From an uncultured Bacillota bacterium (lineage in GTDB: Bacteria; Sysuimicrobiota; Sysuimicrobiia; Sysuimicrobiales; Segetimicrobiaceae): 64,000 nucleotides of DNA. Below are positions 16,158-56,623 of this stretch, piece by piece (positions within the stretch are counted from its first letter, which is position 1; each line of letters opens with the position of its first letter). Both the position numbers and the translations under genes were made by a program. The stretch is taken from contig CAWDRG010000009.1 of assembly GCA_963804645.1 (NCBI GenBank), positions 1-64,000 of the forward strand. Direction: 5' to 3'. The notes under the pieces are model-generated. The model searched no databases. It worked only from the letters and a program-made list of their open reading frames with translations, and was not told the DNA's origin.

Positions 16158-17108
16158 CTACGCGTACCGGATCCGCGGATCGAGCGCCGCGTAGGCGAGA
16201 TCGGCGAGTAGGTTGCCGAACACGAGCAGCGCCGCGCTGAGCAGCAACCCGGCCATCTGCACCGGGTAATCGCGGTTGTTGAGCGCCTCAAGGAAGAGCC
16301 GCCCCATCCCCGGCCACCCGAAGATCGATTCGGTGATCACCGCGCCGCCGAACAGCGCGGGGAGCTCGAGGCCGATGAGCGTCACCACCGGGATCAGGGA
16401 GTTGCGCACGATGTGGCGGGAGAGCACGCGGGCTCCGGGCAGGCCCTTCGCGCGGGCCGTTCGGACATAGTCGCGCGAGAGCACCTCGAGCACGCTGCTC
16501 CGAAGATACCGGCTCCAGCTCGCGATCGCGCCCAATCCGAGCACCACGGCGGGCATCACCAGATGGCGCAGCAGGTCCGCCGCGGAGGCATCGCCGATCT
16601 CGTGCATGCCCGCGACGGGAAGCAGCCGCAGGTGCACCGCGAGCACGAGCTGGAGCATCAACCCGAACCAGAACGTGGGCATCGCCCACGCGAAGAACGA
16701 CCCGAACGACAGCAGATTGTCGCCCCACGTGTATTTGTGCGTCGCGGCGAAGATGCCGAGCGGAAACGACAGGCCGAGCGCGAGCGCAAACGCGCTCAGC
16801 ATGAGGACGATCGTGGCCGGCAGCCGCTCGCCGATCATCGCGAGCACCGGCCGGCCCGTATAGTACGAGTCCCCCCACTGTCCCCGCACGATCGCCCCGA
16901 GCCAGGTCAGATACCGCGCGTACCACGGTCGATCGAGGCCGAGCTGATGCCGCAGGACCACGATGCGGTCGGGGGTGACCTGAGGGTTATGCAGGTAGAC
17001 CGCGAGCGGCCCCCCCGGAGCGACGTTCATGATCGCGTAGCTGACGCACGACACCAGGAGCAGCAGCACCGCCGCCTGCACCGCCCGGCTCGCGACATAG
17101 CCGCCCAT
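16158..17108 (-). CDS. Peptide/nickel ABC transporter permease (DppB/OppB-like)
   Basis: DYVRTARAKGL, ITESIFGWPGMG, LDPRIRY. Confidence 0.93.
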   Translation of the reverse strand: MGGYVASRAVQAAVLLLLVSCVSYAIMNVAPGGPLAVYLHNPQVTPDRIVVLRHQLGLDRPWYARYLTWLGAIVRGQWGDSYYTGRPVLAMIGERLPATIVLMLSAFALALGLSFPLGIFAATHKYTWGDNLLSFGSFFAWAMPTFWFGLMLQLVLAVHLRLLPVAGMHEIGDASAADLLRHLVMPAVVLGLGAIASWSRYLRSSVLEVLSRDYVRTARAKGLPGARVLSRHIVRNSLIPVVTLIGLELPALFGGAVITESIFGWPGMGRLFLEALNNRDYPVQMAGLLLSAALLVFGNLLADLAYAALDPRIRYA

Positions 17109-29565: not shown

Positions 29566-29985
29566 TCAGCCGACCTTTTGAGAGGCGTAATTCACTTGAC
29601 CCGGGTTCGGACCGAGCAGCACCAGCAAATCCCAGCCCGGTTGCGCCCAGGTAAAGTCCAACTCGACGAAATCGACCGACTGCGCGTCGTTCGTATTGTC
29701 AAAGGCGCATTGATTGAACGCGGAGTTGGGATTAAGGCGCAGCCACGCGTTGCCCGTGCCGTGCCACGTGACACCCTCGTTGGCCGTCGCGCCCCAAAAA
29801 TACGCGTATCTGTTGACCGTTTGCAGGTCGACATTCCAGAGATTGAGGGTCTGATAGGGGTCGATCTGCCACCACCCCAGTTTTCGGAAATTCTGATTGG
29901 CCGTCCCGCAGCTCGGGTCGTAGTACGCGAACGCGATCCACACGGGCTGCGGCTGCGCCAACACATTGGAAAACAGAAGGGCCAT
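29566..29985 (-). CDS. DUF1036-like protein
   Basis: VWIAFAYY...GWWQIDP...NRYAYF...W.G pattern. Confidence 0.7.
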   Translation of the reverse strand: MALLFSNVLAQPQPVWIAFAYYDPSCGTANQNFRKLGWWQIDPYQTLNLWNVDLQTVNRYAYFWGATANEGVTWHGTGNAWLRLNPNSAFNQCAFDNTNDAQSVDFVELDFTWAQPGWDLLVLLGPNPGQVNYASQKVG

Positions 29986-30260
29986 GTCACTCCACCGTCT
30001 TCGGCAGGTCTTGCATTTGAGAGATGCGTTGAGATGCGCCGGGCGGCGTCGGCGTGGTTTGCACGAGGCGCGCCTCGGACGGGTGTATGGATTTCATCAG
30101 ATTGGCCATGGCCGGCTTGCGGAGCACTCCGAATGCGCCATCGGGCGCGGTGGGCGGTGGTGTCGGCACGTTCGCTCCCTTCCATCCCGGATTTCGGTGC
30201 GGGCCTGCGGTATTCATCATACCTTTTCTCCCGACCTCGATCCAACGAAACAACGGATGT

Positions 30261-30600
30261 CCCCGGCACGGTCCCGGGGGCACCGCATCATCGCGCGTGC
30301 GCCGCGTCGGGCAGGACGTTCGAAGCCTCCCGGGGTCCGAGCACAGCCTGGCGGATACCCCGAGTATATCCGGGCTCGCCGAGCACGAATGTGGAGCGGG
30401 AGAAGCGGTCGATGCGGGAAAAATACGGGAGGCGCTCACCCACCGGCGTCTCACCGTCTTCGGCCCTCGCCGCCGGTGCCTACTGCCCGTCAGCCGTTCT
30501 CCGGAGTTACCCCCGAAGTACACTTGACCAGCTTTCGGCGTCCACGTGCGCGAGCGTTTGAGTCGGCTACCTTTGCCGGAGGATTTGCGCCTCCGGTAAC
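30261..30600 (-). ncRNA. Candidate structured non-coding RNA, family not recognised
   Basis: Dense helices, including a GNRA-capped hairpin and crossing pairings, downstream of a sigma70-like promoter (see findings). Boundaries are approximate. Confidence 0.5.
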
Positions 30601-30601
30601 A

Positions 30602-30630
30602 GTTGTATCACACCCCCGCGCGCCCGGCAA
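30602..30630 (-). promoter_or_regulatory. sigma70-like promoter
   Basis: TTGCCG-N17-TACAAC with TG extension. Confidence 0.5.
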
Positions 30631-30654
30631 TCCGGAAACTCAGTTCGAGCAAAC

Positions 30655-30697
30655 TCCGGATAATGTGGATCGTAACATGTGGATAACCCGTGGATAC
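30655..30697. promoter_or_regulatory. Cluster of DnaA-box-like 9-mers
   Basis: Perfect TGTGGATAA at 30678-30686 plus three co-oriented 2-mismatch copies at 30655, 30664 and 30689. Confidence 0.6.
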
Positions 30698-30710
30698 GCG
30701 TGAGTGCCCC

Positions 30711-31100
30711 TCAGGAACTGCTTTTCTCGACGAAATTCACGCGCAGATTGGTCAGCAGCGTCTCCATTTCACGGCGCGGACTTTCGTCGATCCCTTCGCG
30801 CACGAGCACAAACACCGCCGCGTACGCATCGATCGCCAGACGCGCGCCGTCCAGATTCTTCGCCACCGCACCACTCGCGGGATTCGGGACGAGCCCCATG
30901 CCCTCCCACGCCTTCGCGGCAAGGACGCTGAGACACCAGATGAGGATATCGCGCGTCTCGAGCGCGTGCAGCGGCACCGCGCGCGCCTGCGCGTTGCGGT
31001 CTTCGGGCGCGGGCGCCCCAGCATCGTCCGCGGGCGCCTGCGGGGCGTCTTCGGGACGCGGTTCCTCAGCGGCGCCGCTCCAATCAACCATCGTCATCAC
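30711..31100 (-). CDS. DUF1844 domain protein
   Basis: LAAKAWEGMGLVPNP...NLDGARLAID...LLTNLRVNFV. Confidence 0.85.
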   Translation of the reverse strand: MMTMVDWSGAAEEPRPEDAPQAPADDAGAPAPEDRNAQARAVPLHALETRDILIWCLSVLAAKAWEGMGLVPNPASGAVAKNLDGARLAIDAYAAVFVLVREGIDESPRREMETLLTNLRVNFVEKSSS

Positions 31101-55000: not shown

Positions 55001-56623
55001 GTGACCGGCCAGGGACGCAGCATCACGTTTGCGCAGCGCGGCATGATCGCCACGGACCACACCCTCGCGTCGGCCGCGGGGCTGCAGGTACTCCAACGCG
55101 GCGGCAACGCCATCGATGCGGCGACCTGCGCCGCCGCGGTGCTCGGCGTCGTCCTCCCGATGATGGGAGGCCTCGGCGGCGACACGTTCATCGTGTACTA
55201 CGAGGCGGCGTCCGGACGTGTGGGCACGATCGTGGGCTCCGGGGCCGCGCCCCGCGCCGCCACGCTAGACTACTTCACCTCGCGGGGACACCACGTGATG
55301 CCGCCGCGCGGCATGCTGTCCCCGTCGGTGCCAGGGGCCGTGGACGCGATGGCCGTCTCGCTCGCGCGGTGGGGCAGCGGCCGGTTCACACTCGGGCAGC
55401 TCCTCGAGCCCGCCATCGAGTACGCCGAGAGGGGCTTTCCGGTCGCCGAAAACGAGGCCGGCTGGTTTGCCGCGGGTGCGGAGACGCTCTCCCGCTATCC
55501 GTCGTCGGCCCGCGTGTACCTCGCGAACAGCCGCGCGCCGCGCGCCGGCGAGATCCTGGTCCAGGCGGACCTCGGCCGCTCGCTGCGCACGATCGCCGAG
55601 CAGGGCGCGCGCGCCCTCTACGAAGGCGATCTCGCGGCCCGTCTCGCCGAATACGCGCGCGAGCACGGCGGTCTGCTCGACGCGCACGATCTGGCGGCCC
55701 ATACCACGGAGTTCGCGGAGCCCGCCTCGACGACGCACCGCGACTTCACGATCCACACGGCCCCACCGCCGTCCCAAGGCTTCGTGATGCTCGAGATGAT
55801 CAACATTCTCGCGCAGGACGACCTGGGCGCCCTCCCGTGGGGATCGCCGCAGGCGATCCATCTCGCCGTCGAGGCGAAGAAGCTCGCATTCGCGGACCGC
55901 CTCGCGTACGTCGGCGACCCGCGGTTCATCCAAAACCCCCTGCCCCGGCTCCTCAGCGCCGACTACGCGCGGCATCGGCGGCGCGCCCTCGATCCACTGC
56001 ACGCGCAGGACACGGTTGCCGCGGGCGCGATCCACGAGCAGGTCGGCGAGACCACGGCGTTCGTCGTCGCCGACGCCGCCGGCAACGTCTGCAGCTACAT
56101 CACCAGCCTCTCGAACGGGTTCGGGTGCGGCGAGGTCGCCGACGGCACCGGCATCCTGCTGAACAACCGCGCGGGCCGGGGCTTCTCCCTCGTCCCGGGC
56201 CACCCGAACGCCATTGCCCCCGGCAAGCGCACGATGCACACGCTGATGGCCTTTCTCGCGACGCGGCAGGGCCGCCCCTTCCTCGCGTGGGCGACCCGGG
56301 GGGGCGACGGGCAGGCGCAGTGGGACTTCCAGGTGTGGAGCGACGTCGTCCACCACGGCATGAACATCCAGGAGGCCGTGGAGCGCCCCCGCTGGCTGAG
56401 CTTTCCCGCGAGCGACCCCTCCACGATCGAGGCACCGTACGAGCTGCGCATGGAGGCGGGATTTGCGCCGGAGACGTACGAGGGCCTCAGGCGGCTGGGC
56501 CACCGCGTCGTCGCGCCCCGCCCGAGCGACGGCGGCGTGCAGGTGATCATGCGAGATCGCGAGGAACGCGTGTACGGCGGCGCATCGGACCCGCGCGCCG
56601 ACGGCTGTGCGATCGGGTTCTGA
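55001..56623 (+). CDS. ggt: Gamma-glutamyltransferase family protein
   Basis: GGNAIDAA, GLGGD, E|TT nucleophile site, LNNR, PGKR, GASDPR.DG. Confidence 0.92.
   Translation: MTGQGRSITFAQRGMIATDHTLASAAGLQVLQRGGNAIDAATCAAAVLGVVLPMMGGLGGDTFIVYYEAASGRVGTIVGSGAAPRAATLDYFTSRGHHVMPPRGMLSPSVPGAVDAMAVSLARWGSGRFTLGQLLEPAIEYAERGFPVAENEAGWFAAGAETLSRYPSSARVYLANSRAPRAGEILVQADLGRSLRTIAEQGARALYEGDLAARLAEYAREHGGLLDAHDLAAHTTEFAEPASTTHRDFTIHTAPPPSQGFVMLEMINILAQDDLGALPWGSPQAIHLAVEAKKLAFADRLAYVGDPRFIQNPLPRLLSADYARHRRRALDPLHAQDTVAAGAIHEQVGETTAFVVADAAGNVCSYITSLSNGFGCGEVADGTGILLNNRAGRGFSLVPGHPNAIAPGKRTMHTLMAFLATRQGRPFLAWATRGGDGQAQWDFQVWSDVVHHGMNIQEAVERPRWLSFPASDPSTIEAPYELRMEAGFAPETYEGLRRLGHRVVAPRPSDGGVQVIMRDREERVYGGASDPRADGCAIGF

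Follow-up and report, generated by a model that had tools for sequence, protein, structure and literature searches.

Which product, if any, is made from the minus strand just downstream of the DUF1844 gene (30711-31100) in the uncultured bacterium considered here? The window, a stretch of 64,000 nucleotides (nt) to which all coordinates refer, belongs to a genome (G000; 96.77% complete) of CSP1-3 (Sysuimicrobiota), an uncultured phylum of soils and hot springs. An earlier reading of the letters alone (the sequence-only reading) had proposed an unrecognised, structured RNA on the minus strand, right after the hexamer pair TTGCCG-N17-TACAAC, and had thought of a novel non-coding RNA, a ribozyme or a riboswitch-like leader. 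The stretch 30419-30597 on the minus strand very probably encodes, as a gene in its own right, a structured non-coding RNA of about 177 nt, of a family that lies outside Rfam and is found only in CSP1-3; the family is genuinely new. Positions within the RNA are counted from window 30597, which is its position 1.

The extent of the gene follows from its homologues. A conserved block of about 270 bases (~30416-30688, minus strand) was found by blastn in 46 of 61 related genomes, often in several places per genome, and alignments of 22 and then 21 copies resolve it into a conserved promoter region, a few variable bases and a highly conserved body of ~177 nt that ends in a U-rich tract. Similarity between copies ceases after this tract, and both conservation and the match to the family's covariance model (R1; 189.5 bits for the gene) end at ~30416-30419. 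The tract itself, UAUUUUU (30419-30425, minus strand), stands directly 3' of the helix that closes the molecule (P1, described below), is kept after P1 in the copies of family f1, to which G000 belongs, and is presumed to mark the end of transcription. A scan for consensus terminators gave 0 sites because the two strands of the stem are far apart: UAUUUUU follows the 3' strand of P1, whose partner lies about 150 nt upstream. The element had earlier been drawn as 370 nt long, with hairpins down to 30261, and this extent has to be given up: as 370 nt the fold is unremarkable (z -1.07), and from 30261 to ~30416 conservation by blastn is confined to the closest relative.

That no credible protein is encoded, as the sequence-only reading held, agrees with the homologues. 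No reading frame is kept among them: RNA copies measure 176-182 nt (n=42), with lengths varying by 1-2 nt, and changes in the helices are compensatory. An overlapping open reading frame (ORF) of 178 aa has no Pfam match.

The fold was obtained by comparison. RNAalifold, applied to 42 sequences, returned an unbranched rod with 47 pairs (compensatory changes in 21), which was refined by hand to 53 pairs and then counted on a MAFFT alignment independent of that structure. It comprises 83 main-type copies and 32 diverged paralogues, 115 distinct copies in all, with the apparently truncated copy L153 retained. On the minus strand, the 53-pair rod consists of nine helices: P1 (positions 4-11 with 163-170), P2 (15-23 with 151-159), P3 (31-34 and 37-38 with 140-145), P4 (43-50 with 128-135), P5 (52-56 with 123-127), P6 (59-61 with 118-120), P7 (66-72 with 107-113), P8 (76-78 with 101-103) and the GUAA-closed P9 (80-87 with 92-99). 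Among the 115 copies, 90.9% of the cells of the rod are paired, compared with 41.1-47.1% in controls in which the structure was slid along the alignment; changes on both sides occur in 41 of the 53 pairs (24-29 in the slid controls) and in 564 cells (79-144 in the controls). The value observed for the rod was matched by 0 of 500 shuffles, a figure that overstates the support because the copies are related, so that the slid control is the fairer one.

The closure of the rod is the clearest part of it. The 5' strand of P1, GGAGGCGC (30587-30594, minus strand), pairs with its 3' strand, GCGCCUCC (30428-30435, minus strand); the helix is 98.4% paired, with pair types that include AU:62/GC:49, GC:79/AU:31 and AU:50/GC:44, and in one copy (L017) a G-to-A and a C-to-U change are matched on opposite strands. 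GGAGGCGC (30594-30587) had earlier been assigned to a hairpin with the adjacent CCUCCGG, and its partner is instead the distant 3' strand (30435-30428). At the other end of the rod, the apical hairpin CUUCGGGG-GUAA-CUCCGGAG (30499-30518, minus strand; 8 pairs; helix 8 in the count, 92.2% paired) covaries as well, for example with CG:81/GC:25 and GC:89/AU:14. This GUAA-loop hairpin is the element of the original proposal that stands. The five others, namely the 5' hairpin just mentioned, the two long-range helices that would cross in a pseudoknot, the CGAAA-loop hairpin and the 8-bp helix, behave as chance pairings of a G+C-rich sequence: over the 115 homologues 64.8% of their cells are paired (shuffled mean 64.0%), and both-side changes fill 68 cells against 71.6 in the shuffles. 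A mutual-information scan brought out no further helix, pseudoknot or long-range tertiary pair. The covariation expected of a structured RNA is strong and is carried by the new fold, with compensatory changes in 41 of its 53 pairs; the RNA is a long rod closed by the pairing of its 5' and 3' ends.

Folding energies and strand preference agree with this picture. With the true ends (30421-30597), the minimum free energy (MFE) is -90.8 kcal/mol (z -4.84), none of 200 shuffles folds as low, and the comparative rod is reproduced; the plus strand between the same ends gives -74.4 kcal/mol (z -2.84). The covariance model scores forward matches at 141-195 bits and reverse ones at 22-39 bits, and G-U pairs are conserved within helices (for example, GU:88 in P3 and UG:87 in P5).

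Constraint on the sequence itself lies elsewhere in the molecule. About 55 of the 177 positions are at least 90% conserved among the 115 copies, and they are concentrated in the internal loops and their flanks, while the helices covary. The constrained loops comprise GCCGAnUCAAA opposite AAGACGG, GANA opposite (A/G)GUA, and AGUA opposite GAA beside P3; the base of the apical GUAA stem is nearly invariant too. On the 5' side, the strand GCCGACUCAAA (30557-30567, minus strand) takes in P3 and an internal loop; it is nearly invariant, with columns that are either unchanged or conserved to at least 90%. Opposite it runs the stretch A30460-G30452, contained in CGAAGACGGUG (30462-30452) and likewise nearly invariant, and both GCCGACUCAAA and this facing stretch are retained even in divergent paralogues. 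Further up the rod, AGUA (30481-30484, minus strand) lies opposite GAAA (30533-30536), and G115, U116, A117, G62 and A63 are each at least 90% conserved there. Two of the internal loops, including AGUA/GAAA, presumably resemble loop-E or bulged-G motifs.

Could a rod of this size be a very divergent member of a known housekeeping family, such as 6S RNA, the RNA of the signal recognition particle (SRP) or Y RNA? Its size, paired ends and rod shape are 6S- and Y-like, the apical GNRA loop is SRP-like, and the 6S model is silent in G000, all of which would favour such an identity. The search of Rfam covariance models called for by the sequence-only reading found no family that matches the RNA. 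At the gathering score, Rfam 15 yields only 3 tRNAs in the whole 64-kb window; with expect values (E) up to 10, the region 29900-30900 gives two chance matches (E 6.5 and 8.4), both at 30044-30186 and thus outside the RNA; and two divergent paralogues (L172, L173) have no Rfam match at E up to 0.1.

6S RNA (RF00013) is likewise a rod of ~180 nt with paired ends, stand-alone, abundant and sometimes paralogous. Of the 94 genomes of the phylum, 67 have an RF00013 match at a different locus (above the cut-off in 63), so that 6S and the studied RNA coexist, as in G046; the latter is therefore not the 6S RNA of the phylum. In G000 the model finds no 6S, and in a control it detects only 5 of 14 known genomes. 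Identity with 6S was rejected on these separate loci, on the lack of an RF00013 match and on the lack of the large central bubble by which 6S differs: by comparison and by MFE, the internal loops measure at most ~7 by 5 nt, and P4, with its 8 pairs, occupies the site where the bubble would be. The promoters also differ, the upstream module described below being absent from 6S promoters (6 loci). Within genus g1, which includes G000, an RF00013 match occurs in 1 of 6 genomes and falls below the cut-off (43.9 bits), while most other genera score well; the 6S of this genus is probably divergent.

Like the SRP RNA (4.5S, RF00169), the studied RNA is an irregular hairpin capped by a GNRA tetraloop, and its conserved internal loops are non-Watson-Crick; in the SRP such loops bind protein. 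It is, however, twice as long, multi-copy and different in its loop sequences, and the SRP promoter (1 locus) is without the DnaA-box/GAAC module. An SRP identity was rejected, as RF00169 matches at G000:C10:47710-47809 (76.6 bits) and not at the studied RNA. Bacterial Y RNAs, which are partners of Ro/Rsr proteins and are induced by DNA damage in Deinococcus, likewise occur as rod-like paralogues, several to a genome, that share a conserved end stem, and a stress link is possible in both cases; the studied RNA has no tRNA-like module and no Rfam match, and a Y identity was rejected because PF05731 (TROVE/Ro) has 0 matches in G000. With 6S and SRP at other loci, no TROVE/Ro protein in G000, no large central bubble and no Rfam match at E up to 10, membership in one of these housekeeping families is highly improbable. 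A looser resemblance is to raiA, OLE and ROOL, which were also lineage-restricted, conserved in sequence and structure, abundant and without an assigned function when found. The studied RNA has no Rfam homology to them; it is smaller and unbranched, occurs in multiple copies and is confined to a single candidate phylum.

Does the RNA act on its own, or does it belong to a neighbouring gene? Its context was examined at 82 distinct loci. In f1, the main copy follows an M20 peptidase gene and DUF1844 and precedes a gene for a DUF255 thioredoxin-like protein; DUF1844 lies upstream in 10 of the 82 loci, all of one family, and DUF255 downstream in 17, so the association with DUF1844 genes put forward earlier does not generalise. 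Upstream of the RNA in families f5 and f2 is a YjeF-type gene in divergent orientation (19 loci), with the gene for holo-ACP synthase (ACPS) downstream on the opposite strand (13 of 13), and extra copies adjoin unrelated genes. The RNA could act in cis on the gene that follows it, as a leader or riboswitch, a role that the sequence-only reading had also entertained, and at several f1 loci DUF255 does follow on the same strand, 107-143 nt downstream. It almost certainly does not: a U-tract comes right after the closing helix, the downstream genes vary by family, ACPS is on the opposite strand in all 13 loci of its synteny type, and extra copies lie beside unrelated genes. The RNA is a stand-alone gene among unrelated housekeeping genes, neither a leader nor tied to mobile genes. 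The same survey weighs against a functional reading from context, in that no gene is consistently linked to the RNA in the examined loci.

Several neighbours deserve mention in their own right. In the window, a 77-aa ORF with a GGGAG ribosome-binding site and no Pfam family (29987-30220, minus strand) and a weak DUF1036-like ORF (29566-29985, minus strand) lie between the RNA and the DUF255 gene; 29566-30220 has the look of an insertion that the closest relative also carries, because DUF255 stands only ~110-140 nt past the RNA in other f1 genomes. Both diverged (type B) copies of the RNA in G000 (L232, L233) are divergent from paralogous genes for molybdopterin oxidoreductases of ~810 aa, an arrangement that probably reflects a segmental duplication. 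A link between type B copies and this enzyme was considered and rejected, as tblastn found the gene beside 0 of 17 other diverged copies, whose neighbours include a histidine kinase, a LonC-like protease and PFK.

Evidence for transcription comes from metatranscriptomes. The query was 261 nt long, of which the RNA makes up ~70%, and six runs contain 40-55% of the sampled query words. Contigs from four runs of four studies (soil, peat) cover 30417-30589, with word depths of 5.2 (X15), 128.3 (X16), up to 253.8 (X20) and up to 9,307.7 (X17; 25.2 million letters). These depths are consistent with a very abundant stable RNA. Against that reading, the contigs give no strand, ends or true level, the depth is summed over relatives, and contamination with DNA is possible. 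None of the four runs has a contig on 30000-30407 or 30612-31000, and uncovered parts carry no evidential weight. Adapter letters abut contigs at 30432-30434 (X17, X20), 30457, 30506, 30562 and 30581; they may be fragment ends and were not read as ends of the RNA. Taken with the empty Rfam search, the covariation, the conserved promoter and U-tract, and the separate loci of 6S and SRP, the contigs from four studies bear out the earlier proposal of a novel non-coding RNA with its own promoter that is not a tmRNA, RNase P, SRP, 6S or riboswitch.

The locus might also be chiefly a DNA-level element, either a dispersed repeat such as a miniature inverted-repeat transposable element (MITE) or a site that titrates DnaA, with an incidental transcript. 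It is multi-copy with tandem duplicates, the rod amounts to a long imperfect inverted repeat, and DnaA-box-like 9-mers cluster upstream. Such a reading is very unlikely, however: the housekeeping genes around the main copy are the same throughout a family, the conserved G-U pairs and the strand asymmetry of the scores indicate selection at the RNA level, and the depth in RNA libraries is very high. Nor is there a transposase or integrase beside the examined copies or any match among viral contigs (terminal repeats and target duplications were not searched for).

The word TATCCACA forms pairs elsewhere in G000, on opposite strands and exactly 221 bp apart, at C6:106408/106629, C16:60/281, C17:855460/855681, C19:113142/113363, C21:1660/1881 and C21:4632/4853 (six in all). 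The arrangement hints at a dispersed element of ~230 bp whose ends are inverted, perhaps a MITE or the end of an insertion sequence.

How widely is the RNA distributed? The phylum set comprises 94 genomes, all from a single order, and model R1 detects the RNA in 74: in 22 of 22 genomes of f1, 32 of 34 of f5, 17 of 22 of f2 and the single genomes of f6 (1/1) and f7 (1/1). Two of the positive genomes, G034 and G078, are unpublished (72 of 92 without them), and their sequences are absent from the alignments. On the negative side, no copy was detectable in f4 (0 of 12) or f3 (0 of 1), and lax filters, applied to four f4 genomes and the f3 genome, gave best matches of E 0.055 and 0.84, which are not significant. 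An exact pattern built from the invariant columns was searched in one genome per species (185,579 species) and matched 66 stretches, all in metagenome-assembled genomes whose titles give Armatimonadota, 'ANGP1', Bacillota, plain 'bacterium', CSP1-3 or the name of a Candidatus genus. Fervidifonticultor, Geohabitans and Calidihabitans, three of the genera concerned, are assigned to Sysuimicrobiota in a genome paper on the phylum (PMC11604079), and in five otherwise-labelled records the places of the RNA coincide with places in genomes of the phylum set. In viral contigs, the exact pattern had 0 matches.

The number of places per genome is 1-2 outside f1 and reaches 8 in f1 (G002), with 4 in G000, diverged paralogues counted. 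The second main-type copy of G000 (C15:319884-320150) is 93% identical; its transcribed part differs by one base up to the closing helix and diverges thereafter. The type B paralogues, such as G000 C11:201704-201896 and C5:276160-276350, keep P1, the invariant loops and the U-tract; they have a longer apical arm and other promoters, and the GUAA loop is lost. Head-to-tail tandem duplicates of promoter plus RNA occur at G021:C33:96037-96551 and G013:C21:20780-21267, with starts ~310-335 bp apart. In L153 (G010:C177:2303-2474), the 3' third from the AAGACGG region onward is unrelated sequence, and this copy is probably a decayed pseudogene.

What controls the gene? Both hexamers noted by the sequence-only reading fall on conserved promoter columns: the -35 TTGCCG (30630-30625), a 17-nt spacer, TG (30610-30609) and the -10 TACAAC (30607-30602) form a promoter at 30602-30630 (minus strand), in which TTG-N17-TGnTA is conserved; a scan for the sigma-70 consensus called no site there. 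Four nt upstream of the -35, at a position fixed across promoters, lies the palindrome-like box GAACTGAGTTTC (30635-30646, minus strand), which reads GAAC-N4-GTT(G/C) in f5 and f2 and GAAC-N4-(T/A)TTC in f1. Further upstream, four co-oriented 9-mers that resemble DnaA boxes are conserved across the phylum (30655-30697, minus strand): GTATCCACG (30697-30689), TTATCCACA (30686-30678), CGATCCACA (30672-30664) and TTATCCGGA (30663-30655). The second is a perfect TTATCCACA, the word that clusters at dnaA of G000 (dnaA domain at C9:436723-437196); of its 9 perfect copies in that genome, 4 flank dnaA, 2 are in promoters of the studied RNA and 1 is in a third copy of the module (C15:~16989). Searched as an exact pattern, the module matches 56 times across 50 of 94 genomes, compared with 0 for the reversed control, and 49 of these matches are directly upstream of the studied RNA.

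Candidate readers of the module can be named by likeness. A LexA operator of the Cheo type would be the palindrome GAAC-N4-GTTC/GTTT. The operator of lexA1 is CGAAC-N4-GTTTG in 30 of 30 loci, and recA of G000 carries CGAACATATGTTTG; set beside these, the box of the RNA is LexA-like and imperfect, especially in f1. The chances are about even that the main (type A) copies are governed by proteins that would read the upstream module, with DnaA at the 9-mers and LexA or a similar dimer at the GAAC-N4-(G/T)TTC box, and such control would therefore tie the RNA to replication status or DNA stress. Several observations weigh against this assignment. In the window, GAACTGAGTTTC has T in place of the G of GTT that is kept in 30 of 30 lexA1 operators. 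LexA is present in 89 of 94 genomes, and no signal of co-occurrence with the RNA emerges because the RNA-less f4 mostly has it too (10 of 12). TTATCCACA is not enriched genome-wide, with 9 copies seen and ~6 expected from base composition. Finally, the 9-mers contain GTGG on the other strand, and as the mraZ promoter of G000 also has GTGG repeats, MraZ is an alternative candidate for their reader.

Around these regulators, some further features were seen. Most genomes of the phylum have two LexA_DNA_bind matches; in G000, the palindrome CGAACATCTGTTTG lies upstream of lexA1 (C13:~56295-56320), and GTAC-N4-GTTC-type repeats, AGTACATACGTTCG and CGTACATAAGTTCG, which are unlike the lexA1 palindrome, lie upstream of lexA2 (C9:~347330-347430). 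The third copy of the module in G000 (L228; C15:~16880-17007, minus strand) has no RNA of the studied family behind it, and precedes a 188-aa ORF without a Pfam family, a truncated ORF for an SOS-response-associated peptidase (SRAP) and a phage-type integrase.

The remaining 7 matches of the module, all in f2, precede a different small RNA upstream of nadE. This second RNA (L221-L227, in 7 f2 genomes; in L224 at about bases 180-330) is ~140 nt long, its 5' GCCAGCGG pairs with its 3' CCGCUGGC ahead of a U-rich tract, and it sits between the DnaA-box/GAAC-N4-GTTC module and nadE, the gene for glutamine-dependent NAD synthetase. Searched against Rfam at E up to 0.1, L221, L224 and L225 gave only a chance match to RNase MRP in L225 (17.7 bits). 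A nadE regulon was considered and set aside: what follows the module is another small RNA, one with paired ends and a U-tract, and control of nadE itself is therefore not supported.

What, then, might the RNA do? Three kinds of answer can be set against the structure. It may work as a scaffold or decoy that binds protein, in the manner of 6S, Y or SRP RNAs, because the internal loops are fixed in sequence, the helices keep only their pairing, and paralogues with other promoters keep the loops; the chance of this falls a little short of even. Our best guess is that the RNA binds protein and is linked to replication or DNA stress.

The RNA could instead be a trans-acting small RNA in which a conserved unpaired stretch (UCAAAC or CGAAGA) pairs with mRNAs, the rod serving for stability. 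In favour of such a role, the gene stands alone, its promoter looks regulated and a U-tract follows; there are multi-copy paralogues with different promoters, which recall Qrr- or Rsm-type RNAs, and a second small RNA uses the common promoter module. Nearly the whole molecule is paired, however, the invariant nucleotides face each other across loops with no single open seed, and ~55 of 177 positions conserved at 90% or more exceed what a seed requires; a base-pairing role is thus unlikely, if well short of negligible. Still more doubtful is a ribozyme or a trans-acting ligand-sensing RNA whose invariant loops form a catalytic or binding pocket. The helices covary around internal loops of very high sequence conservation, and the GNRA loop could dock within the molecule; set against this are the lack of a pseudoknot or tertiary pair in the mutual-information scan, the unbranched rod, the loss of GUAA in divergent paralogues and the absence of a link to metabolic genes.

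Within the protein-binding reading, a more specific model can be offered tentatively, and its full form is rather unlikely: the RNA would be the RNA subunit or decoy of an undescribed ribonucleoprotein specific to Sysuimicrobiota, with its synthesis jointly under DnaA and a LexA-type repressor. These two would read the upstream module and set the rate of synthesis; the RNA would bind its protein partner through the invariant internal loops; the abundant RNA would report replication status or DNA damage, as 6S reports growth phase; and the diverged paralogues, with their other promoters, might feed further signals into the same protein.

The main texts of the phylum genome papers PMC11604079 and PMC11962464 contain no term for non-coding RNA, and among the matches listed no paper joins CSP1-3 with a structured RNA. 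The relative abundance of CSP1-3/Sysuimicrobiota in soils is reported as up to 22.64% (PMC11604079).

For the biology of the phylum, a central cellular role of the RNA is likely, because it is conserved in most of the phylum, strongly structured, multi-copy and found at high word depth in soil RNA libraries. We know of no pure culture of CSP1-3/Sysuimicrobiota, and the RNA provides a short, specific marker of the phylum's activity in metatranscriptomes. The promoter is a concrete instance, amenable to testing, of RNA genes preceded by DnaA-box and LexA-like sites, and the invariant internal loops give the search for a partner a defined target.

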